Shown here piece by piece: positions 232 to 40,972 of a DNA stretch of 64,000 nucleotides. A model generated the notes under the pieces. That model did not search any database. It was given only the letters and a program-made list of their open reading frames with translations, and was not told the origin of the DNA. Source of the stretch: a phage; the sequence record NC_094493.1. One strand, written 5' to 3'. The position numbers were made by a program, and so were the translations under genes. How positions within the stretch are numbered: the stretch's first letter is position 1; every line of letters begins with the position of its first letter.

Positions 232-2547
232 TTATAGTGCACAACTTTCGCAATACTGATCTTCAACTGAACTATCTGCAGTCAAAGGATAGTTCTTTCT
301 GGTTTCATCTTCAGCCTGTTTCTTGGCATGAAGTTCCTCTGCCAAGGAGTCACCAGCACCAACCCTAGAGTTTAAATAATACCATGTCTTCATTCCGAAT
401 TTAGTGGCACGGATAAGGTACCCTAGCTGCTCCTTCATTGAAATTTTACCATCTTTCAACTTGGTGTAGTCTATGTACAAATCCGCGCTGATTGCCTGAC
501 CTGTGAATTTTTGAATCACAGCATACATATCGATCATGTCGTTAGTATCAACGTCCCAAGCCGAAGTGTAATACTCTTTCAACTCATCATAGTCAGGAAC
601 GATAAACAGCACCTGCCCTTGTGGCGACTTTTTAAAGATAATGTGCTCACGGACAGGATAGACCCCGTTAGTGGTGTTTGTTGCCAGCGAAGAGCTTTCA
701 TTAGGCATATATGCTTCAAGAACGCTATTACGTAGCCCACCATTTTCAATGATTTCTTTACGTAACCCTTCCCAATCCTGTTTAAGAGAAGGATCTTTCA
801 CCACGCTATCGACCTCTTTGTTATAGGTGTCGATTGGTAACCAACCTTCTGGATATTTTGTTTTATGCATCCACTCGCAGACACCACGCTCTTTTGCCAA
901 CCGTAAACTTGCCTTATGCAAGCTGTAGCTGTGAAGTTCTGCAAGATCGTGAACGAGCTGTTTACTTTCAGGAGATCCGTAAGTAACCTTGTGGCTGGCA
1001 ATAAAATGTGCAACATTGGTAAGGCCAACCCCGATGGATCTGCGTTTTTTAACTGTGCTTTCCATATTTTCATACGGATATGTCATGATTTCCATAACAT
1101 TGTCAATCATAAGCACCGTATAGTATGCAACATCCTCATACTCCTCTGGAGTAACCCTCCCAGCTACAAGAGATGACAGGAAGCACAATGCAACCTCTCC
1201 ATCATCAGCATCGTACTTGAAGATATTACGCATATCTGAATAGCCTTTTGTCGGGAGGGCTATTTCTGCACACAGGTTACTTGAATAGATCACATCTTTA
1301 AAAGGTGTATGTCTATTCATCTCATCTGTCCAGTATACATACAGCCTTCCCACCTCAGTACGCTGCGTGATCAGTTCAACAGCAAGATCTCTAGCCCGGA
1401 TCCATGTTTTAGGAATACTGTCATCTTTAGCAATACGATCAACCTCTGCATCAAACTCCTCCATAGACATGGTGAAGATACCCTCATGCAGTTGAGGCGC
1501 GTGCTTATAAGAAACAAGCATCCAATCCAAATTCTTAGCCACACGGTTGATAAACGACCTATTAATACCGATGGAGTAGTCCATGGTGTTGATTCTTTTT
1601 GAAGCAACAGTCATAGGGTTTCTCAAACGGATTAGCTCATCAATCTGCGGGTCCAGTGCAAGGAATGATACTGTTGCAGAACCGCCACGTGATTGTTGTC
1701 TGTTCTCCTTAACACCAGCATCAATACCTCGATAATATGGAATCTTACCCATATGTTTAATAGTGTTACCACGAACACCATCGCCTGCAGATCTTGAGGA
1801 TAAGTAGTAGCCGATACCTGCCTGGTTAACCGTCATTGTGTACGCAACTTCACGTGCCACACCAATAGATTTTGCTGTATCGTCAGCTTTTATTACACAA
1901 CAAGATGCATACCCTGTCTTACCTGTGCGCAGCCCGTTTAAGTACGGTGTCGGGGCATTGATCTTTAAGTCGGACAGATAAGTGTATAATTTTACAACAT
2001 CGTTGATACGACGTTCTTTCGGCATATTCTTCATGACAGCCATTGCTATCCCCATAAACATCATCTGGGGAGATTCAAACAGGGTGTCTTTAAGAGTATC
2101 TTTGATCCCGTATTTGTCGCGAAACTGTTTAAGGACTGCATAGCCGTAACCGAGATCTTTACTGTGGTCAATAACAGCGTCTAAAGTGTTTAGCTCGGTA
2201 AAGCTATAACCCATATCCTCCCAATAACCTTTCTCAACCATGTCATTGTAAAATGATGGTAAGGAAGGGATCTTTGTAAACCCTCCAAAAGCCTCTTTAT
2301 AGATCTGACCAATAAGAACACGACCAGCCATACGGGAATGTGCTTCGTCTTTACGGCTAACACAAGAGTCTATAATAGCTTGGTTAACTTCTTTGGTTGT
2401 ACATCCATCATACAACCGCTTGTAGGCATCCAGTGCAATATGTGACCAATTGCCGTTACCATCGTCACCGAAAATAGCTGCCTTATTTAAACGTTCTGGA
2501 TCGAATGCCACTTCACATCCGTTGCTTTTAATTACCTTGGTGATCAA
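232..2547 (-). CDS. nrdA: Ribonucleotide reductase large subunit, class Ia
   Basis: 771 aa; N-terminal ATP-cone-like region; NLCAEIALP active-site motif; C-terminal CESCAL redox tail. Confidence 0.85.
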   Translation of the reverse strand: MITKVIKSNGCEVAFDPERLNKAAIFGDDGNGNWSHIALDAYKRLYDGCTTKEVNQAIIDSCVSRKDEAHSRMAGRVLIGQIYKEAFGGFTKIPSLPSFYNDMVEKGYWEDMGYSFTELNTLDAVIDHSKDLGYGYAVLKQFRDKYGIKDTLKDTLFESPQMMFMGIAMAVMKNMPKERRINDVVKLYTYLSDLKINAPTPYLNGLRTGKTGYASCCVIKADDTAKSIGVAREVAYTMTVNQAGIGYYLSSRSAGDGVRGNTIKHMGKIPYYRGIDAGVKENRQQSRGGSATVSFLALDPQIDELIRLRNPMTVASKRINTMDYSIGINRSFINRVAKNLDWMLVSYKHAPQLHEGIFTMSMEEFDAEVDRIAKDDSIPKTWIRARDLAVELITQRTEVGRLYVYWTDEMNRHTPFKDVIYSSNLCAEIALPTKGYSDMRNIFKYDADDGEVALCFLSSLVAGRVTPEEYEDVAYYTVLMIDNVMEIMTYPYENMESTVKKRRSIGVGLTNVAHFIASHKVTYGSPESKQLVHDLAELHSYSLHKASLRLAKERGVCEWMHKTKYPEGWLPIDTYNKEVDSVVKDPSLKQDWEGLRKEIIENGGLRNSVLEAYMPNESSSLATNTTNGVYPVREHIIFKKSPQGQVLFIVPDYDELKEYYTSAWDVDTNDMIDMYAVIQKFTGQAISADLYIDYTKLKDGKISMKEQLGYLIRATKFGMKTWYYLNSRVGAGDSLAEELHAKKQAEDETRKNYPLTADSSVEDQYCESCAL

Positions 2548-2774
2548 TTTGCTTCCTCCACTTCACTAACGTATTTATCAAGGCAGGTATCAGTATCTTG
2601 CTGGATAAAAGTATCCTCTTCTACAGAGATATTTATAATTTTACCTGTATACTCGTCATAATAGACATCATCATACATTTTAATATCGTTTGTCAGGCCA
2701 TTGAACCAAAGCCAACCAACATACTCTGCCCGACTTGCAAAACCAAGATCCTTCCACTTGGAGTTATGACTCAT
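2544..2774 (-). CDS. Hypothetical protein (76 aa)
   Basis: Start moved to internal ATG preceded by AAGGTGGTG RBS; no recognisable motif. Confidence 0.3.
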   Translation of the reverse strand: MSHNSKWKDLGFASRAEYVGWLWFNGLTNDIKMYDDVYYDEYTGKIINISVEEDTFIQQDTDTCLDKYVSEVEEAN

Positions 2775-2784
2775 CTTCACCACC

Positions 2785-3285
2785 TTAGCTTTCAATACCG
2801 AATAATTTTTCCAGGCGATGCAGATCTTCAAAATTGAAAGGTTCATCAACAATATGAATATCTTCAGCCTTTTCAGATTGTTTTGTATACTTTCTTACAT
2901 TAACACGATCCTCTACAGGGATATCATACGGGAGATCTTGAACAAGCATTGCCTCACCAGGTGCTTTATCTACATCTAAAATATCTACACCGTTATACAT
3001 TTGTGGGTATCTAAAGTCTGCACGCATGACACCAGCAAATACATCTGCCTTTCGATAATGTGTTGGCTTATTTTTGCATCGAACGTTTTTTCCACGAAGA
3101 ACATCAATACTTTTTAAATCAAACCCTACGGCAAAGAGTGCAGCTCGGAGACCGTTTCGTGTGCGAACGTTAAACCCGGGGACGGTAGATAGAAAATCTA
3201 AAGTAACTGAAATAAATGTCTTTTTAGGAATCATAACATTACTCATATCTGTCTCCATTTCTGGCTCACCAACAAAGTGAGCCAT
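2785..3285 (-). CDS. Hypothetical protein (166 aa)
   Basis: ORF in the operon between nrdA and the ThyX-like gene; no recognisable motif. Confidence 0.35.
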   Translation of the reverse strand: MAHFVGEPEMETDMSNVMIPKKTFISVTLDFLSTVPGFNVRTRNGLRAALFAVGFDLKSIDVLRGKNVRCKNKPTHYRKADVFAGVMRADFRYPQMYNGVDILDVDKAPGEAMLVQDLPYDIPVEDRVNVRKYTKQSEKAEDIHIVDEPFNFEDLHRLEKLFGIES

Positions 3286-3344
3286 TATTATAGATTATCT
3301 AATACTATTAGTCAACACAAAAGTTACCTATCGCTGTGATAGGA

Positions 3345-4328
3345 TTAACCTTTCACGAAGTGGTTATTAAGCAGTTGTCTGTGCTGAACCCACCCACAAA
3401 AGTTGGCAGACCAGAATTTACCATCACGGTCTTGATGGGTTACACCTTCCTGCCAAGTACTGATGTCTTGTGTGATTTCACATGAAGACAGGTAGTAGTT
3501 TAAACGTTCCATTGCGTTATCGTGATCCATAGGTGTTGCCTGGTGCTCGTAAGGGCTTGCATGAATACGATCCCCACCAATCAATTTTTTAGCCACACTA
3601 TCTGCCTTTTCAAACGTGCTGTCAATATTTCGATAAGATACTTGTGCACAGCAACTAGCACTGATAGACAGAGCTTCTTTAGTATCGAGAATGCAGAGCT
3701 TTCCTTCTGTGTCACGTACAGCGTAGTTAAACTCTCCGTCCAAATAAACGTGCTCTACATATGGGGTGTGCCATTGACCCGGTTTAAGGATTTCAGGAGT
3801 GCTATTCTCAAGAGCCTCCCACATACAATTAGCTAACATCTGAATCGTAGGATCCGCATCGTGCCAGCAACGGAGGTGGAAAAAATTATTCCACTCGGTG
3901 CTTGTTACAACTGTTTTCATGCGCTGGAACGGCTCCACTAAGCGGTTACATACTTGCTTATGGTAACCAGCAAGGGCGAACTTCTCTGCATGCCAAGCGG
4001 CGTTTTTTGCAGCTTCTTTCCAAAACTCTTCAGGAGTTAGCTCCATGTCAGTGTACTCTACACGGATCTTTTGATCGTGTTCCCCACCATCTTCCATTCC
4101 TCGCTTATTTACACCGAAGCGAACTGGCATTGCCGGATTCTCCACAATCTGTTGCAGCATCTTGCCGACAGGTACTGCACGGGAAGACATGGCGTTTCGG
4201 CTGAACACTCGGTGCGTCATAAGCTCTGAGTGAATAATTCGAGGATACTCTAGTTCAAAAGTGGTGATACGCTTACCTTTCTCGGAAATGCTGTCAGCAA
4301 TAATCTTTGCAGTGCACAGTTTTAGCAT
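3345..4328 (-). CDS. ThyX-like (flavin-dependent thymidylate synthase fold) protein, divergent
   Basis: THRVFSRNAMSSR matches the spacing of the ThyX RHRxxSxxxxSxR signature but with Thr in place of the first Arg; later LR...DA...IQ segment also ThyX-like; 327 aa is longer than typical ThyX. Confidence 0.45.
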   Translation of the reverse strand: MLKLCTAKIIADSISEKGKRITTFELEYPRIIHSELMTHRVFSRNAMSSRAVPVGKMLQQIVENPAMPVRFGVNKRGMEDGGEHDQKIRVEYTDMELTPEEFWKEAAKNAAWHAEKFALAGYHKQVCNRLVEPFQRMKTVVTSTEWNNFFHLRCWHDADPTIQMLANCMWEALENSTPEILKPGQWHTPYVEHVYLDGEFNYAVRDTEGKLCILDTKEALSISASCCAQVSYRNIDSTFEKADSVAKKLIGGDRIHASPYEHQATPMDHDNAMERLNYYLSSCEITQDISTWQEGVTHQDRDGKFWSANFCGWVQHRQLLNNHFVKG

Positions 4329-33949: not shown

Positions 33950-35326
33950 ATGCCATATTTAGATAAAGTGGTAGATGTTACAGTTAACCTCGGAACCCAG
34001 CCTATTGACACTGTAGGTTTCGAAACTCCCCTGTTCATCGCTATCCACAATAACTTTACTGAGCGAGCTCGCGTATATGCGGAGCTGGATCAGATGGTGG
34101 AAGATGGTTTCGCACAAGGCTCTGCAGCGTATGAGTTTGCAGCAAAAGCTTTTGGTGGTGTATTCCCTCCACAATACGTTATGATCGGCAGACAGGCCAA
34201 AGAAAAGACCACTGTAGATTTTAAAGGTATTGCTGCCGCAGCTGATACCGATGTTGTAATGACTATTGCAAAAGGTGACTACAATACTGCCTTGATAGTC
34301 CCTATCTCTGGTGGAACAGGGGCAACTCAGATCGCAGAGGCAATGAAGGAAAAAATTGAGGCTGATGATAGCTTAGACGGTATCACCGTGCAGGCCGAAG
34401 AAGGTGTTATCACCATCACTGGTGATTGTACTGTTGGTTATCATACTGGTAACTATACGATCAAAAACATTGCTAATAGTGAAAAACCTTCTACCGTGAT
34501 CGACAAGATCAACGCTGAGCAGGATAATTGGTACTTCCTGTGTCATGAAGACCACACGGACATTGAAGCGTGTGCTAAGTGGGCTCAGGCTAACTACAAA
34601 CTGCATGTCTACTCTACTGCAGAAGATGTGACTGGTAAAGACAGCAATATTGCCACTAAACTGAAAGCTGCAAAATATGACAGTGTTGGTATGTACGACC
34701 CTCGCGCAGACAAAGACTTCCCAGAGGGCGGTATTATCGGTGCTATGGCATCCAACGATCCGTCATACGGCGACAGCTTACACTTAAAACAGATGCCTGG
34801 TGTTCTTGCACCATCCCTGACCTTGACCCAGCGCATGGCGATTTGGGAGAACAACATTAACTTCTACAGAACAATCAACGGTGTTGGTGCTTTCTGGGAA
34901 GGTAAGTGTGCTTCAGGTCAGTATGCAGACGCTATTCGTTTTGCACACTGGATCAAGTTCAGATCTGAAGAGTCCATGTTTGGGTACATGCATCGTCGCT
35001 CCAATATGGGTTTAAGCATGAAGATGTCTGATGATGATCTTCCGGTTATCAAGTCTGTCCTGATGAACAACCCAATCAACACTGGCATTAAGAATGGTGC
35101 GATCCTGACAGGTTTCGACGAAGACAATAATGTGTTCTACGACCCGATCATCACAGTTCCTAAACGTGCAGAAATCCCAACCAATCAGTTGGCTGCTCGT
35201 GTTCTGGAAGGTGTGAAAGTAGAACTGGTGTATAATAACGCCCTGCACTTCGTTCGTATCCGGATCAACGTCCTTCTGGACAAAGTTGGTTCTAAATCCA
35301 CCAATGCTGTTGCAATGACTGAATAA
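33950..35326 (+). CDS. Putative tail sheath (or major tail) protein
   Basis: 458-aa ORF followed by a 157-aa tube-sized gene and a terminator; by position and size. Confidence 0.4.
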   Translation: MPYLDKVVDVTVNLGTQPIDTVGFETPLFIAIHNNFTERARVYAELDQMVEDGFAQGSAAYEFAAKAFGGVFPPQYVMIGRQAKEKTTVDFKGIAAAADTDVVMTIAKGDYNTALIVPISGGTGATQIAEAMKEKIEADDSLDGITVQAEEGVITITGDCTVGYHTGNYTIKNIANSEKPSTVIDKINAEQDNWYFLCHEDHTDIEACAKWAQANYKLHVYSTAEDVTGKDSNIATKLKAAKYDSVGMYDPRADKDFPEGGIIGAMASNDPSYGDSLHLKQMPGVLAPSLTLTQRMAIWENNINFYRTINGVGAFWEGKCASGQYADAIRFAHWIKFRSEESMFGYMHRRSNMGLSMKMSDDDLPVIKSVLMNNPINTGIKNGAILTGFDEDNNVFYDPIITVPKRAEIPTNQLAARVLEGVKVELVYNNALHFVRIRINVLLDKVGSKSTNAVAMTE

Positions 35327-35336
35327 GGAAGCCTAG

Positions 35337-35810
35337 ATGGAAACTCAAATTTTAACTCCTTATGCGTATGACCCTAAAAAGGTCAAACTGTATCTGATGC
35401 AGCAGCGTGTCACTGGCTTCGCTGCTGACACCAAGATTGTTGTTTCAAGAAACGAAGACAACATTTATCCTCACGTCGGTGTGGATGGTGAAATGTCTGC
35501 AGCTCTGTCCCGTAACCAATCTGGTGTTATGACTGTGTCTTTGCAGAACACTTCTGTATGGAACGCTTACCTTTCTGACTGGCAGAAACAGGCATCTATT
35601 ACTGGCCTGGTATTCTTCCCGGTTCTGCTGGAAGGTAGCCAGGGCCCTGGTATTTCCACAATCGGTTGGATCCAGAAACAGCCTGACCTGACTTACGGAA
35701 CCGAAGTAGGTCAACTGGACTGGGATATCGGTATTTTGGATGCATGGCTCAACCGTGATAACATTACTGGTGCTCTCACTGGCCTCGCAGGTCTTGCAGG
35801 TATTATCTAA
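35337..35810 (+). CDS. Putative tail tube protein
   Basis: 157 aa, immediately downstream of the sheath candidate. Confidence 0.35.
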   Translation: METQILTPYAYDPKKVKLYLMQQRVTGFAADTKIVVSRNEDNIYPHVGVDGEMSAALSRNQSGVMTVSLQNTSVWNAYLSDWQKQASITGLVFFPVLLEGSQGPGISTIGWIQKQPDLTYGTEVGQLDWDIGILDAWLNRDNITGALTGLAGLAGII

Positions 35811-35923: not shown

Positions 35924-37774
35924 GTGGCTAGAAAACTAAGATCAAGCACAGAGGAGTTCATTGCTAAGGCTAGGGAAGTTCATGGGGATAAGTATTCTTA
36001 CGAAAAAACTGTGTACACAGGTTGTACAAAACCTCTGATTGTAACGTGCAGCTTGCACGGTGACTTCAAAATAACTCCGCACAAACACATCTCTGGTAAG
36101 CAAGGTTGCCCGGAGTGTGGTAAGCTGGTTCGGGCAGCGAAAAAGAATAAGGGCGCTCTGTTTGTAGAAAGAGCTAAAGCTATCCACGGGGATAAATACG
36201 ACTACTCCCTTGTGAATTACAAAACTTGCAAAGATCCTGTGGAAATCATCTGTAATAAATGTGGTAAACATTTTCTGCAAACTCCTGACAACCACATTAA
36301 CACCAAAAAAGGTTGCCCCGTTTGTGGTAAGGAGAGGTCAAAAGAGAAATTGGTGGCTAGAGGAAAAGAACGTAGAGGAAAACCGAATCTTAGGCACAGA
36401 TCTTCAACAGAAGAGTTTTTAAAGAAAGTTTTCAATAAATTCCCTCAGAACAGGGATTTGTTTGATTACTCACACGTTAAGTATACAACTTGTGAGGAAA
36501 AAGTAGAGATTCATTGTAAGGTTTGTGGGTACGTTATGCATCAAAAACCTTCAGACCATCTACAAGGGAAAGGGTGTAAGCGCTGTGCTGGAATGGCTAC
36601 TTCTGCGAAAAAAGTGCCAAGTTTTCAAGAGGTGGCAGAAAGAGCCAAAGCTGTACATGGCGACAAATACGAATATTTTGAAGATTCTTATGTGAATGCC
36701 TCAACACCTATGAAAATACGTCACAAAGAGTGTGGTAACATCTTCATGCAGCGTCCGGAGTTCCATTATGGTAAAGGCCAGGGTTGTCCTCGTTGTTGCC
36801 ATAATCAGTCAACTGGCGAGAAAGATGTGCTGTCATTCATTAAAGGTATATATAGTGGTGTTGTTGAAGAGAATGCGTGGGTTTTGGAAAACTTCAAATA
36901 TCCGTCTAAGAAAAAGATGGAATTGGATATTTACCTCCCAGAGTTAAAGCTTGCTGTAGAATACAATGGTGTCTTCTGGCACTCAGTTGATCGTAAAGGG
37001 AAAGGATATCATATCCAGAAGAGAAAGGCTTGTGAGCAACAAGGAATTCGCATGCTATCTATTTGGGAATGTGACTGGCATGATTCTCGTAAAAGGCCTA
37101 TCATTGAGAGATATCTTAAAAACGCTCTTGGTGTTAAAGATGAGAAGACAGTGTATGCAAGGAAGTGCACGATAAAAGATGTGGACAATAAAACTTACCG
37201 AGATTTTATGGATAAGAACCACATTCAAGGGTATGCAACTGCTAAAGAAGTGAAGAAGGGACTTTTTACAGCCGACGGTGAACTGGTAGCCTGTATGAGT
37301 TTTAAAATACTGAAAAACAAGGATCAAAAGGTAACACCTTTCGTCATGTGGGACATGGTAAGATATGCCACAAGCTGTAACGTTCCTGGTGGACGTAGCA
37401 AGCTGTTTAAACATATCCAAAAGGAGTTTAAGATGGATCATGTTCAATCTTTTCTTGATAGAGACTACTTTACGGGCGTGTCCTATAAAGAGGAAGATGG
37501 ATGGGTTCTGGCAGAGGACGATCAGGTGTCTATCAGTTTCTGGAGTTACCGAGGGGGTAGGATGTCAAGGCAAGCGTGGTGGAAGTCTAACATTCCAGAA
37601 ACATTGAAACGTCTTGGGTTGGACGAATCCTTGTATGATCCGGAGAAAACACAAGAGTGGAATGCCAAAAATGCAGGATGTCACATTTTGGAGAACAGTG
37701 GTAACTCTCGCTTCGAGTGGCACAGCGAGGAAGGTAAAAATGACCCTGTGTATTTAAACTGGTTGAAAGGTTAA
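35924..37774 (+). CDS. Repeated zinc-ribbon protein with C-terminal Vsr-like nuclease domain; putative free-standing homing endonuclease
   Basis: Four to five ~50-aa repeats (HGDKY...C...HG...GCPxCG); C-terminal LAVEYNGVFWH resembles Vsr/DUF559-type nucleases; GTG start. Confidence 0.45.
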   Translation: MARKLRSSTEEFIAKAREVHGDKYSYEKTVYTGCTKPLIVTCSLHGDFKITPHKHISGKQGCPECGKLVRAAKKNKGALFVERAKAIHGDKYDYSLVNYKTCKDPVEIICNKCGKHFLQTPDNHINTKKGCPVCGKERSKEKLVARGKERRGKPNLRHRSSTEEFLKKVFNKFPQNRDLFDYSHVKYTTCEEKVEIHCKVCGYVMHQKPSDHLQGKGCKRCAGMATSAKKVPSFQEVAERAKAVHGDKYEYFEDSYVNASTPMKIRHKECGNIFMQRPEFHYGKGQGCPRCCHNQSTGEKDVLSFIKGIYSGVVEENAWVLENFKYPSKKKMELDIYLPELKLAVEYNGVFWHSVDRKGKGYHIQKRKACEQQGIRMLSIWECDWHDSRKRPIIERYLKNALGVKDEKTVYARKCTIKDVDNKTYRDFMDKNHIQGYATAKEVKKGLFTADGELVACMSFKILKNKDQKVTPFVMWDMVRYATSCNVPGGRSKLFKHIQKEFKMDHVQSFLDRDYFTGVSYKEEDGWVLAEDDQVSISFWSYRGGRMSRQAWWKSNIPETLKRLGLDESLYDPEKTQEWNAKNAGCHILENSGNSRFEWHSEEGKNDPVYLNWLKG

Positions 37775-37775
37775 A

Positions 37776-37804
37776 TTGACAATGCACCATAATCATGGTA
37801 AAAT
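37776..37804 (+). promoter_or_regulatory. Sigma70-type promoter (TTGACA, 17 bp, TAAAAT with upstream TG)
   Basis: Read directly from sequence. Confidence 0.5.
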
Positions 37805-37847
37805 ACACAAATATGGTGCACAACATGACTAATAAGGATGCTATAAA

Positions 37848-38321
37848 ATGGCTATAAACTTTAGACCTACAACAGAGATTGATTTAGCAGGGCACAACTT
37901 TGTGATCACCCACTGGGGACCGATGAAAGCAATGAAAAACATGCCTAAAATCGGTAAGATTGTGGCTGTCCCGCTAGGTGCTATCGGTGGATCTATTATC
38001 TCTGGTGGTCAGAATATGGCAGAGGTCCTTCCTACTGCTCTGGCTTACCTGTTCCAAGAACTTGATGATAATTCTATTGAAGAGTTATTTAAAATCTTGT
38101 TCGAAGATATTACCGTAGATGGTGTGGATAAGCTTAACCCGGATGTTGTGTTTGCAGGGCATCTGCTGGAGATGATTAAGCTGGCAGGTAAGGTTCTGGA
38201 GGTTAACTACGGCTGTTTTTTCACACAAGACGGTTTAGGAAGCCTTCTGGAGATGTTACAGCAGATGGGTATGATTCAGCAGGTGAACAACCTGGATCAG
38301 ACTCCGGAAGAGCAGGAATAA
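37848..38321 (+). CDS. Putative tail assembly chaperone
   Basis: 157-aa ORF directly upstream of the tape measure gene; contains a slippery heptamer. Confidence 0.45.
   Translation: MAINFRPTTEIDLAGHNFVITHWGPMKAMKNMPKIGKIVAVPLGAIGGSIISGGQNMAEVLPTALAYLFQELDDNSIEELFKILFEDITVDGVDKLNPDVVFAGHLLEMIKLAGKVLEVNYGCFFTQDGLGSLLEMLQQMGMIQQVNNLDQTPEEQE
38216..38222 (+). other. Candidate -1 programmed frameshift site (T TTT TTC)
   Basis: X XXY YYZ heptamer in the zero frame; the -1 frame is open from about 38207 to 38581. Confidence 0.45.
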
Positions 38322-38332
38322 GTAAGGTTGTT

Positions 38333-38581
38333 GTGAGGGCCAGTGAGTGGGCAGCCAAGAACAGTTCACTCAACTGGTTCGACTTTCTTTGGTGCAGGGT
38401 GCTCAAGAATTTCAAAGGGGAAAATTTTGAATCGCTAAATCTTGCAGATATGGCGTATTTCCTGAAGCTCTGTGAGTATCTTGATATCGAAGAATTCCTA
38501 GATACCGTCCAAAACAGGGAAATGGAGCGGGAGCAGAAGGCTGCCGCAGCTGCTGCGAAAGCTAAGCGCAGGAGAGGATAA
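38333..38581 (+). CDS. Downstream ORF of the chaperone, probably expressed as a frameshift extension
   Basis: Same frame as the -1 frame after the slippery site; GTG at 38333 is the track's nominal start. Confidence 0.4.
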   Translation: MRASEWAAKNSSLNWFDFLWCRVLKNFKGENFESLNLADMAYFLKLCEYLDIEEFLDTVQNREMEREQKAAAAAAKAKRRRG

Positions 38582-38585
38582 TCTA

Positions 38586-38623
38586 AGGGCCGGATTCCTT
38601 TTCTGGGATCTGGCCCTTTTTAT
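38586..38623 (+). terminator. Terminator-like hairpin with U-run
   Basis: GGGCCGGATTCC...GGGATCTGGCCC followed by TTTTTATT. Confidence 0.45.
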
Positions 38624-38635
38624 TATGAGGAAACC

Positions 38636-40972
38636 ATGGCTACAAACAAAATAGTTGCCACAACAGTCAACAAGATTGGCTTTGAGATAGAGAACTCCTC
38701 CTACAAAAAAGCTGTAGAGAAAATTCGCAGTATTGGGAGGGAGTTCAGGAAACTGGGCGAGGATTTTAACTCAGCCAACCCCATGAGTAGATGGCAGGCG
38801 GTAGCTGTTAAAACCCAGCAGACAATGCAGAGGGTTGCCAGACAGCAATCTCAGGCAAATGCTAAACTGCACAGAGAGAGCATAGCACAGGCCAAGAAAG
38901 AGGCTGCAGTAAGGGCTGCAATAGAACGTAGGGAGAATGCGAGACGTAAACAAGCTGTAGGTAATCTTACCGCTAAAAATCCAGAAATGGCTAGGATGCG
39001 TAAGTTCTACCAGCAGCAAGCTAAAGAGGCCAAAAAGGCTGCCAAATCTGCACCAGTGTCTTACGGTGGTTATAAGGCACCTAAGGCAAGAGTTTTGGCT
39101 AATGCCAAATCTTTCAAATATATCCCCGGTAACCCTAATATGGGTGGTGTGGCTTCCGACCCTAACCTTGTGAAAGCTCAGACAGCCGCTATGAATCGTT
39201 ATCATAGACAGCTAAGAAGAGACAGTAAAGCTGGTATGGATAATAAGCTTATGTCGGATCGTGAGGCAAGGAGAACCCACCTCTACAACTCCGCGATAAG
39301 ACTTTCTGCCAAGTATGGGGCCGGATTCCGTGGAAGCTTGCCAGGATACTCAGAGTTAGAGTCCAGGTTTGCTCGCGGGGAGATGAAGAAGTCAACCTTT
39401 AACGCCCACCTGTCAGCGCTGCAGTCTGGGTTTAAAAGCGCCACCAGCCAAACGCTTACACTAGGTGATGCCATGAGAGACCTACGTAGATCTGTTATTA
39501 ATGCAACAGCTGCGTATACGGCTTTTTCTGGATTTGCTGCGGTTAACAGATCCGGTCACATGATGGAGGGGGCAAGTGCTGCTCTTACTGCTGTTACTGG
39601 AGATCCAAACAAAGCCAACAGTGAGGTTGCGTTTGTCCAGCAAGAGGCTATGCGTCTTGGTTTTGATCTCAAATCTGGTCTTCAAGGTTACGCCCAGATG
39701 TCGGTAAACGCCAAAAACCAGATGACAAATCAGGAAGTGCATGAGCTGTTTTCTGCATACTCACAGTATGCTGCTGCTTATGGTGCCGATGAGGTAAAAT
39801 ACCAGCGCGGTATTATGGCTATCCAACAGATGCTAGGCAAGGGACAAGTAATGTCCGAAGAACTGAAGCAACAACTTGCTGAAGCATTGCCCGGTGCATA
39901 CGAACCTTTTATCAAGGCCACCAAAGAGGCTTTTGGTCTTTCTGAACTCTCCATGGATCAGTTCATGGACATGATGAAGAAAGGTGAGGTTAAAACAGCC
40001 AAGATCATGAAGTATGTGGCTAAGTACATGAACGAGGCATCTGCAGCTGGTTATGAAAGAATGCAGAAGTCTAACGTGCTGGCAGAAAACAGACTGAAAA
40101 CCTTTATCGAACTGACTCGTCAGAAACTGTTCACCCGTTGGTCTGACGAACTAACAGAGTTCTATTATACACTGATCCGCACTGGTGAGACTCTGCAATT
40201 TATGTGGGATGCCTCTGGTGATTTTGTTAGCGGGTTTGTGAGAGGCCTTAACTGGGTAGTTGGTGAACTGAACAACACTATAGTCAAGATCCGCATGTTT
40301 TTCCTTGAATGGGGGATTAAATGGGGGTTCATAACAGCTAAGACGAAGGAATATTCTGAAGAGCTTCATGACACCTTTAGCTATGCTAAATGGGCAGGGT
40401 TTGCTGCTGCCATCATGCTGGTCGTCAACGCCCTAACAAAAGGTTTTGTCATGGCATCTATGCTTGTAAAAACCTTTAAATTCCTTAGCTCTCTAAGGGG
40501 TGCAGCTGGAGTAGCAGGTGCCGCTACTACAGAAGGATCTGGTGGTGGCGCTCCGGCAGGAAAAGGGGGAGGTGGCCTCAAGACACCTGGTGGCAAAGTT
40601 GGTCTGCTCGGTAAGCTAGGTATTATCGGTACAATACTAAGCGCCGGGGAATTATTTAATGACCGTTACAACCCACTAAGTGAAAGAAATCAGCAGCTGG
40701 ATACTATCAGCGATATGATTCGCAAAGATATCATATCGGGAGGTAACGGGTTTGTTAATCCTTTGGACACCTTACCGGGCGGGACTCTTCCGTTGCCGGG
40801 TGGCCCTGGTTTTGCTTCTCAATTAAGAACTATGGAAATGCTACCTTTAGAGATCAGTGATGGGAAAATCACGATTTCAATAGATGAGGGTGAGTTTAAC
40901 AAAATATTTGATGCAAAACTTGAGTGGGAGAACAATAAAGATATCAACTTCATGTCTACCGACCTTTGGTAA
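38636..40972 (+). CDS. Tape measure protein
   Basis: 778 aa, long basic/alpha-helical N-terminal region, Gly-rich hydrophobic C-terminal segments; follows the chaperone pair. Confidence 0.6.
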   Translation: MATNKIVATTVNKIGFEIENSSYKKAVEKIRSIGREFRKLGEDFNSANPMSRWQAVAVKTQQTMQRVARQQSQANAKLHRESIAQAKKEAAVRAAIERRENARRKQAVGNLTAKNPEMARMRKFYQQQAKEAKKAAKSAPVSYGGYKAPKARVLANAKSFKYIPGNPNMGGVASDPNLVKAQTAAMNRYHRQLRRDSKAGMDNKLMSDREARRTHLYNSAIRLSAKYGAGFRGSLPGYSELESRFARGEMKKSTFNAHLSALQSGFKSATSQTLTLGDAMRDLRRSVINATAAYTAFSGFAAVNRSGHMMEGASAALTAVTGDPNKANSEVAFVQQEAMRLGFDLKSGLQGYAQMSVNAKNQMTNQEVHELFSAYSQYAAAYGADEVKYQRGIMAIQQMLGKGQVMSEELKQQLAEALPGAYEPFIKATKEAFGLSELSMDQFMDMMKKGEVKTAKIMKYVAKYMNEASAAGYERMQKSNVLAENRLKTFIELTRQKLFTRWSDELTEFYYTLIRTGETLQFMWDASGDFVSGFVRGLNWVVGELNNTIVKIRMFFLEWGIKWGFITAKTKEYSEELHDTFSYAKWAGFAAAIMLVVNALTKGFVMASMLVKTFKFLSSLRGAAGVAGAATTEGSGGGAPAGKGGGGLKTPGGKVGLLGKLGIIGTILSAGELFNDRYNPLSERNQQLDTISDMIRKDIISGGNGFVNPLDTLPGGTLPLPGGPGFASQLRTMEMLPLEISDGKITISIDEGEFNKIFDAKLEWENNKDINFMSTDLW

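Follow-up and report, generated by a model that had tools for sequence, protein, structure and literature searches.

The question raised by this locus is whether the tail assembly chaperone of an rV5-like phage is made as a single protein or as two isoforms, a short one read entirely in the zero frame and a long one that would arise from a -1 frameshift into the overlapping downstream ORF. The locus lies in a phage sequence of 64,000 nucleotides (NC_094493.1), which was analysed as a whole and is referred to here as the window. Judged from its sequence, the window is that of a contractile-tailed, rV5-like myovirus (Vequintavirus, Vequintavirinae), because positions 37780-38640 are identical to those of Escherichia phage I29 (100%) and nearly so to those of rV5 (DQ832317, 99.4%); 121 phage records match this region at 80% identity or more.

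The genes follow the order sheath, tube, chaperone, -1 ORF and tape measure (Table 1); in this phage alone, an HNH endonuclease gene separates the tube gene from the chaperone gene. Two overlapping ORFs are thus found between the tube and tape measure genes, as a G/GT-type pair requires. The upstream one, which the initial annotation took for a tail assembly chaperone, matches Pfam Phage_TAC_15 (PF21822, E=2.3e-23, residues 15-129) and phrog_3840 'tail assembly chaperone' (E=5e-69) and precedes the tape measure gene, all of which supports that identification. The chaperone is presumed to have the tape measure protein as its client, and the C-terminal domain of the long isoform, by analogy with lambda, to have the tube protein as its partner. 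The promoter upstream of the chaperone gene corresponds to the site annotated as promoter P51 in rV5 DQ832317, and the strong terminator, which adjoins the -1 frame stop, is annotated in both rV5 and Murica; together they delimit a compact transcription unit.

Table 1. Features of the chaperone locus and its surroundings, in coordinates of the window.
Feature	Position	Strand	Details
Tail sheath gene	33950-35326		DUF3383
Tail tube protein gene	35337..35810	+	Pfam KPP10_Orf10; structural protein in rV5 annotation
Extra HNH endonuclease ORF	35924-37774		616 aa; between tube and chaperone genes
Sigma-70-type promoter	37776..37804	+	TTGACA-17-TAAAAT with TG extension; consensus match 11/12
Tail assembly chaperone gene, zero frame	37848..38321	+	Short isoform, 157 aa; Pfam, PHROGs
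SD-like GGAGG, putative stimulator	38198..38202	+	13 nt 5' of heptamer; from sequence
Slippery heptamer T TTT TTC (X XXY YYZ)	38216..38222	+	Codons 123-125, Cys-Phe-Phe
Dual-coding overlap	38223..38321	+	Zero frame, 32-aa tail; -1 frame, HTRRFRKPSG and start of linker
Post-slip motif RRFRKPSG, -1 frame	38228..38251	+	Translation; conserved across aligned -1 products
Gly/Ser/Asp-rich linker of long isoform, -1 frame	38252..38317	+	Alignment; length varies among relatives
Conserved C-terminal domain of long isoform, -1 frame	38318..38581	+	Predicted helical; ~80-87 aa; stop 38579-38581
Downstream ORF, start as listed 38333	38333-38581		82 aa
GTG, possible start	38333..38335	+	AAGG 6 nt upstream (weak SD); 82-aa product; this clade only
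Intrinsic terminator	38585..38624	+	14-bp stem with 8 GC pairs and T tract
Tape measure protein gene	38636..40972	+	Pfam TMP_3, E=1.9e-18

The initial annotation had placed a T TTT TTC heptamer in the zero frame at 38216-38222, about 100 nt before the chaperone stop, with a -1 frame open as far as 38581 and a fusion of about 245 aa, and each of these statements agrees with the sequence. Because the codons of the chaperone start at positions divisible by 3, the heptamer is read as TG T TTT TTC, that is, in the X XXY YYZ phase, and the distance between it and the TAA at 38319-38321 is 96 nt. The -1 frame is open for 124 codons from 38207, being closed by stops at 38204-38206 and 38579-38581, and the computed length of the fusion is 125 + 119 = 244 aa. 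Moreover, as a consequence of the -1 stop at 38204-38206, the heptamer occupies the very start of the sole segment in which the two ORFs could be joined by a -1 shift, and no other X XXY YYZ heptamer is present between 38207 and 38321. A +1 frameshift was also considered and rejected, the +1 frame closing 1-20 codons past the chaperone stop in all loci.

By itself, the heptamer is not rare. The window holds 16 copies of TTTTTTC, with ~20 expected, in-phase X XXY YYZ heptamers amount to 0.3% of codons in window ORFs of at least 150 aa, and for the 37-codon overlap the chance probability is ~0.11 for any in-phase heptamer and ~0.006 for T TTT TTC. The absence of enrichment and the first of these probabilities are what could be said for a chance coincidence of a heptamer and an open -1 frame without function. 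Nonetheless, the window has 58 in-phase heptamers, and only that at 38216-38222 precedes a long -1 ORF (119 codons, with 37 for the next best), and the comparative data presented below effectively refute this explanation, which is regarded as extremely improbable.

A tblastn search with the chaperone matched 490 phage records, the lowest identity being 28%. The comparison set was built from 15 annotated loci, 36 IMG/VR loci and the window locus, which together gave 45 distinct sequences spanning Vequintavirinae, Stephanstirmvirinae (e.g. phAPEC8) and Aeromonas Plateaulakevirus. The IMG/VR loci were retrieved with the peptide pattern [VIH][NY]Y[GA][CP]FF[TGK], which is biased to Phe-Phe and has no bias to particular codons; since the pattern was a peptide, codon choice in these loci was free to vary. 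T TTT TTC occupies the same aligned position, with its phase unchanged, in 44 of the 45 distinct loci (28-100% amino acid identity), although these loci are related to each other and the counts are not independent events. The phages that carry it include Seunavirus PVP-SE1 and Klebsiella, Certrevirus, Henunavirus and Avunavirus phages.

The Phe-Phe pair is also kept at the protein level, and amino acid constraint explains part of the conservation of the heptamer. However, the synonymous positions are equally fixed. Codons 123-125 have a pairwise synonymous diversity of 0.00, versus 0.51-0.55 over codons 1-115; the third position of codon 123 is always T, whichever residue is encoded (Cys TGT in 29 loci, Pro CCT in 15 and Ser AGT in 1); and F124 is TTT and F125 is TTC in 44/44 loci, whereas the invariant Phe102, used as a control, is TTC in 26 and TTT in 18. 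The exception to the heptamer is the Rheinheimera phage Barba5A, which is without the T run and has instead, three codons downstream, the heptamer of lambda, G GGA AAG, leading into the same -1 motif, FR.PSG (FRIPSG). In divergent relatives, then, both the slip site (44/45) and the relation between the two frames (40/40, see below) are conserved beyond what amino acid constraint would demand, and the comparison as a whole goes far beyond anything expected by chance.

The protein encoded by the -1 frame is conserved as well. Right after the slip, the relatives share the consensus (H/R/Q)x(R)RFR(K/R)PSG, with HFQKP as its counterpart in Citrobacter phage Moogle. The C-terminal domain that follows the linker has the motif L.W[FY][DE]...L[KR]L.EY[LI]D.[EQ][ED][FY] in relatives and matches phrog_10409 (unknown function, E=8.5e-51), which is held in PHROGs as a separate family. 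This domain is located 35, 44, 47, 53, 62 or 98 nt past the chaperone stop, a distance of 2 mod 3 in 40/40 loci; as all six spacings obey this rule, the insertions and deletions in the spacing have always preserved the -1 relation.

These data bear on a second explanation, in which no recoding takes place and the downstream ORF is a small gene in its own right, with GTG 38333 as its start and a product of 82 aa, the heptamer being merely two Phe codons. For this phage, such a start is present, with AAGG 6 nt upstream; the Murica annotators put an RBS and a CDS at its counterpart, gene callers give proteins of 80-82 aa for the downstream ORF, and PHROGs holds it as a family of its own. However, in many other lineages the first -1-frame ATG, GTG or TTG past the chaperone stop lies within the conserved domain, 24-81 nt inside it (at +81 nt for the clade of Klebsiella phages, at +33 nt for Certrevirus and between +24 and +33 nt for further lineages), so that independent initiation is unable to yield the domain in those lineages. 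Also, the -1 frame is open and conserved as protein (RFRKPSG) before any start, within the chaperone ORF, and the preserved frame relation over six spacings, together with the invariant synonymous positions of the heptamer beside another invariant Phe that varies freely, would be difficult to reconcile with two separately translated genes. Initiation at GTG 38333 is confined to this clade and cannot account for the family-wide pattern, although it could occur in this phage alongside the frameshift. As a substitute for the frameshift, the independent gene is therefore quite improbable.

Searches with the 244-aa fusion and structure prediction of its extension add little. Among the 73 homologues retrieved from 5.8 billion proteins, no natural in-frame fusion is found; all of them have 149-159 aa and cover ~50% of the query, and so the search gives no extra support. 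The AlphaFold2 (AF2) models of the -1 extension, obtained with four sequences, have a mean pLDDT of 51, with residues 1-32 devoid of structure and helices thereafter, and because of this low mean value they are unfit for a fold search. In the predicted fusion the slip junction reads FFHTRRF; the junction peptide contains NYGCFFHTRRFR, and the tryptic junction peptide is VLEVNYGCFFHTR.

A third explanation leaves the long protein in place and changes its origin. RNA polymerase, instead of the ribosome, would slip in the T6 run and add one U, giving a minority mRNA that encodes the same 244-aa protein. The run is homopolymeric, and the insertion of one U gives an identical product. To slip efficiently, bacterial polymerases require a run of about 8-9 identical bases (A or T) or more, and the T6 run is shorter than this. 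In the 44 loci the run is exactly T6, never longer, and always ends in C; moreover, it is always in the X XXY YYZ phase, even though polymerase slippage tolerates any phase. The G GGA AAG of Barba5A is a classic ribosomal slip site that cannot support polymerase slippage. Precedents for the transcriptional route come from the literature, where polymerase slippage on T-rich tracts is documented in the Atkins 2016 review (PMC5009743), and a non-translational mechanism was argued for T4-like chaperones by Vladimirov et al. 2022, as this work is listed among the references of PMC12846349. Nonetheless, a run of only six bases that is never longer, and its replacement by G GGA AAG in Barba5A, disfavor transcriptional slippage, which is considered improbable as the source of the long isoform.

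Turning to the ribosomal slip, no downstream RNA structure that could stimulate it is apparent: single-sequence folds of 38223-38330 and 38190-38290 are no better than those of shuffled sequences (z = -0.6 and -1.2), an RNAalifold analysis of 11 relatives yields no covariation and no more than a weak hairpin, of which the heptamer itself is a part, and Rfam returns no match apart from a chance-level GcvB (E=0.77). A downstream stem-loop or pseudoknot of the dnaX or IS type, which would be placed 5-9 nt past the heptamer, was accordingly rejected as stimulator, the three approaches being negative. Upstream of the heptamer, at a distance of 12-14 nt, 33 of 44 relatives have an SD-like match (4 nt or longer), and 11 lack it. 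The Glu codon in this element is GAG in 31 cases and GAA in 7, versus 146 and 329 elsewhere in the same genes; as the sequences are related, this bias and the conservation of the element give only a hint of a role. The slippage is probably stimulated by the heptamer itself, and the upstream GGAGG may add to this in the present phage. According to Sharma et al. 2014, U_UU.U_UU.C shifts at >0.1% without stimulators in E. coli, belongs to the efficient H_HH.U_UU.Y class and is used by IS elements, U_UU.C being the second-best A-site tetramer; the spacing of GGAGG also falls inside the range of 6-17 nt upstream in which SD-like stimulators were sought in that work.

The short isoform has features of its own. 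In the AF2 model of this form (mean pLDDT 66, with 70-87 across most of the core), the last helix predicted with confidence extends to residue 121, and confidence is low over residues 126-157, which puts the slip at codons 124/125 at a domain boundary. On this prediction the chaperone fold would be whole in both isoforms, which would differ only beyond the slip. A Foldseek comparison of the model with the PDB gave no significant match, the best being 5ir0 (Vibrio PLE ORF19, E=0.5). As the slip lies ~32 codons ahead of the stop, the short form bears a substantial private C-terminal tail, of 32 aa and beginning TQDGLGSLLEML, and the zero-frame protein past the slip is conserved among relatives as FF(T/G/K)K.GFG.L..LL...G.

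Both frames of the overlap are thus conserved as protein, and its synonymous diversity drops to 0.27 (codons 126-135) and 0.39 (codons 136-157), versus 0.51-0.55 upstream. This is the pattern expected of a dual-coding segment. An unusually early slip, kept across families at 54-102 nt before the stop, would create such a segment and with it room for conserved private elements in both isoforms. A tentative extension of this idea, which is doubtful at present, is that the two isoforms carry mutually exclusive functional C-terminal elements, the GFG.L..LL...G tail in one and RFRKPSG in the other, with the conserved SD-like GGAGG as the sole stimulator tuning their ratio. If this were true, it would represent a variant of the G/GT logic and not a new mechanism.

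Taken together, the long 244-aa isoform is probably made by ribosomal -1 slippage at 38216-38222, a reading to which a probability of about 0.85 is assigned from the sequence comparisons. In the mechanism proposed here, the chaperone mRNA would begin at the promoter (37776) and end at the terminator (38585), and most translation would stay in the zero frame and give the short chaperone of 157 aa. A minority of ribosomes would pause with tRNA-Phe on UUU in the P site (codon 124) and on UUC in the A site (codon 125); both tRNA-Phe would move one base backwards and re-pair cognately with UUU UUU, and translation would resume in the -1 frame from CAC (38222), with no downstream RNA structure taking part. 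The resulting isoform would consist of residues 1-125, RRFRKPSG, a flexible Gly/Ser linker and the helical C-terminal domain. By analogy with lambda gpG/gpGT, both isoforms would coat the tape measure protein through their shared N-terminal domain, and the rare C-terminal domain would recruit the tail tube protein. Also as in lambda, a fixed low long:short ratio would be set by the slip efficiency. We infer the slip itself, its efficiency and these binding partners from the anatomy of the locus, its homology, the conservation of nucleotides and protein, and the preservation of frame.

In the databases, this gene is recorded otherwise. None of the 15 annotated rV5-like and related loci examined has a joined CDS, and GenBank lists the C-terminal domain as a separate hypothetical protein. 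The downstream ORFs called in relatives have very different lengths, or none is called, because many lineages lack a usable start. In rV5 itself, a CTG at the heptamer is the annotated start of ORF50. The paper on the rV5 genome and proteome makes no mention of a frameshift or a chaperone, although tail assembly chaperones form no part of the virion, and a search of the literature on Vequintavirinae, Vequintavirus and Phapecoctavirus in combination with frameshift or chaperone found no description of the site. It is an ordinary device, well known from phages, and unannotated so far in rV5-like and related genomes. More than 100 rV5-like genomes, many of them from phage-therapy candidates, list the C-terminal domain as 'hypothetical protein' (phrog_10409), and the same separate listing is found in Seunavirus, Certrevirus, Phapecoctavirus and other related genomes. 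The correct annotation would be a joined CDS with ribosomal slippage.

A comparison with known systems places the site among the chaperone frameshifts of tailed phages. In lambda gpG/gpGT (Levin 1993; Xu, Hendrix and Duda 2004, 2013, 2014), as in the arrangement proposed here, the overlapping ORFs lie between the tube and tape measure genes, the -1 slip takes place on a heptamer without an obvious RNA stimulator, and the rare long isoform has an N-terminal chaperone domain common to both products (PMC5009743). The heptamers differ, although that of lambda is used by Barba5A, a member of the chaperone family described here; also, the slip would occur ~32 codons before the stop in the present case, and the tail is contractile. 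E. coli dnaX has a comparable SD-like element ~10-14 nt upstream of a homopolymer-type heptamer; however, dnaX also needs a downstream hairpin, none being found here, and its shifted product is the shorter one, whereas it is the longer one in this phage. The P2 E/E+E' genes are reportedly (Christie et al. 2002) another chaperone pair of a myovirus, with a -1 slip on the T-rich heptamer T TTT TTG, and are said to belong to a different protein family.

Closer to the present case, a conserved GTTTTT -1 frameshift was argued in 2025 for the chaperones of Vandenendeviridae (Pakpunavirus Adele) and Andersonviridae (PMC12846349). That work links both families to Vequintavirinae on grounds of virion architecture and leaves the Vequintavirinae and Stephanstirmvirinae chaperone locus unanalysed. 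In both sites, a T run preceded by G or C is situated near the 3' part of TAC-N, and both arguments draw on an uninterrupted -1 frame over divergent alleles. The Adele-type site is GTTTTT, whereas that described here is a full T6 in the X XXY YYZ phase, 54-102 nt from the stop.

The nearest annotated counterpart is found in the Citrobacter phage Moogle (Felix-O1-like, Ounavirinae; KM236239), whose genome announcement states a translational frameshift in the chaperone (PMC4319497) and whose record has the 'tape measure chaperone' as a joined CDS. The Moogle chaperone belongs to the same Pfam family, PF21822, and is followed by the tape measure gene; it has an identical T TTT TTC at the aligned position, where hhalign (probability 97%) pairs its LEANFGSFF with LEVNYGCFF of this phage, and a GGAGG 13 nt upstream of the heptamer. 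Its -1 extension opens with a related basic motif (FFRGKHFQKP versus FFHTRRFRKP). However, the identity between the chaperones is only ~25%, the Moogle extension is shorter (~95 aa versus 119 aa), and a joined CDS is present in Moogle and missing from the rV5-like and related records examined. In Moogle, 42 nt separate the site from the stop, compared with 96 nt here; the larger distance, which the initial annotation had regarded as greater than usual, is thus real and is a trait of the family (54-102 nt in relatives).

The likeness to G/GT pairs proposed in the initial annotation is therefore supported by conservation in relatives and by the homology with Moogle, and on the same comparisons the candidate site is a -1 site of the G/GT kind, homologous to the one annotated in Felix-O1-like phages. 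With it, the range of the T TTT TTC chaperone frameshift, so far Felix-O1-like and Pakpunavirus-like phages, comes to include Vequintavirinae, Stephanstirmvirinae and Plateaulakevirus, which shows the site to be ancient and common to these myovirus lineages. Among E. coli phages, it would also serve as a clean natural case of a U_UUU_UUC shift site poor in stimulators. The understanding of recoding and of tail assembly is unchanged by it, and its value would reside in the correction of the annotation and in an unusually long dual-coding overlap.

The chaperone unit, comprising the tail assembly chaperone ORF and its extension in the -1 frame, is cut off by a strong intrinsic terminator from the tape measure gene, which starts at 38636, and a scan of the interval between the two found no promoter-like site. 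Because a terminator intervenes and the scan gave no such site, the tape measure gene would have to be expressed by read-through or from a promoter that went unrecognised.

Upstream in the tail module, an inserted HNH/homing-endonuclease ORF separates the chaperone promoter from the tail tube gene. This ORF is present in only 4 of the 117 related phage records (two at 96% identity and two at 85%), whereas a gap of about 160 nt takes its place in rV5, V18, Murica and I29. From this distribution, the HNH ORF looks like a recently mobile element within the tail module.

Features in the window and in the related phage loci
Feature	Sequence	Position	Strand	Details
tRNA call, 99 nt	window	22213-22311	+	ARAGORN; four-base "anticodon" atcc; inside tRNA cluster 21744-22556
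HNH/homing-endonuclease ORF, 616 aa	window	35924-37774	+	phrog_559, E=2e-122; Pfam DUF723 and treble-clef zinc finger
Intrinsic terminator, strong	window	38585-38618	+	14-bp stem
"Putative DNA binding protein" gene	Barba5A (MK719709)	1820-2458	-	
Tape measure gene, annotated as two CDSs	V18 (NC_041937)	2357-3861		2357-3196 and 3193 onward

Within the tRNA cluster, one call carries a four-base "anticodon" that ARAGORN could not assign; on the Rfam tRNA model this stretch reaches 35.5 bits, which exceeds the gathering score of 29. Possible readings are a pseudo-tRNA, a tRNA interrupted by an insertion or intron, and a tRNA whose anticodon loop is odd. No connection with the slippery -1 site of the chaperone ORF is evident.

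The V18 record gives the tape measure gene as two successive CDSs sharing a 4-nt overlap, which suggests a split gene or a sequencing frameshift there. In the Rheinheimera phage Barba5A, an opposite-strand gene for a "putative DNA binding protein" sits after the chaperone extension and before the tape measure gene, breaking the chaperone-tape measure adjacency that is otherwise conserved.
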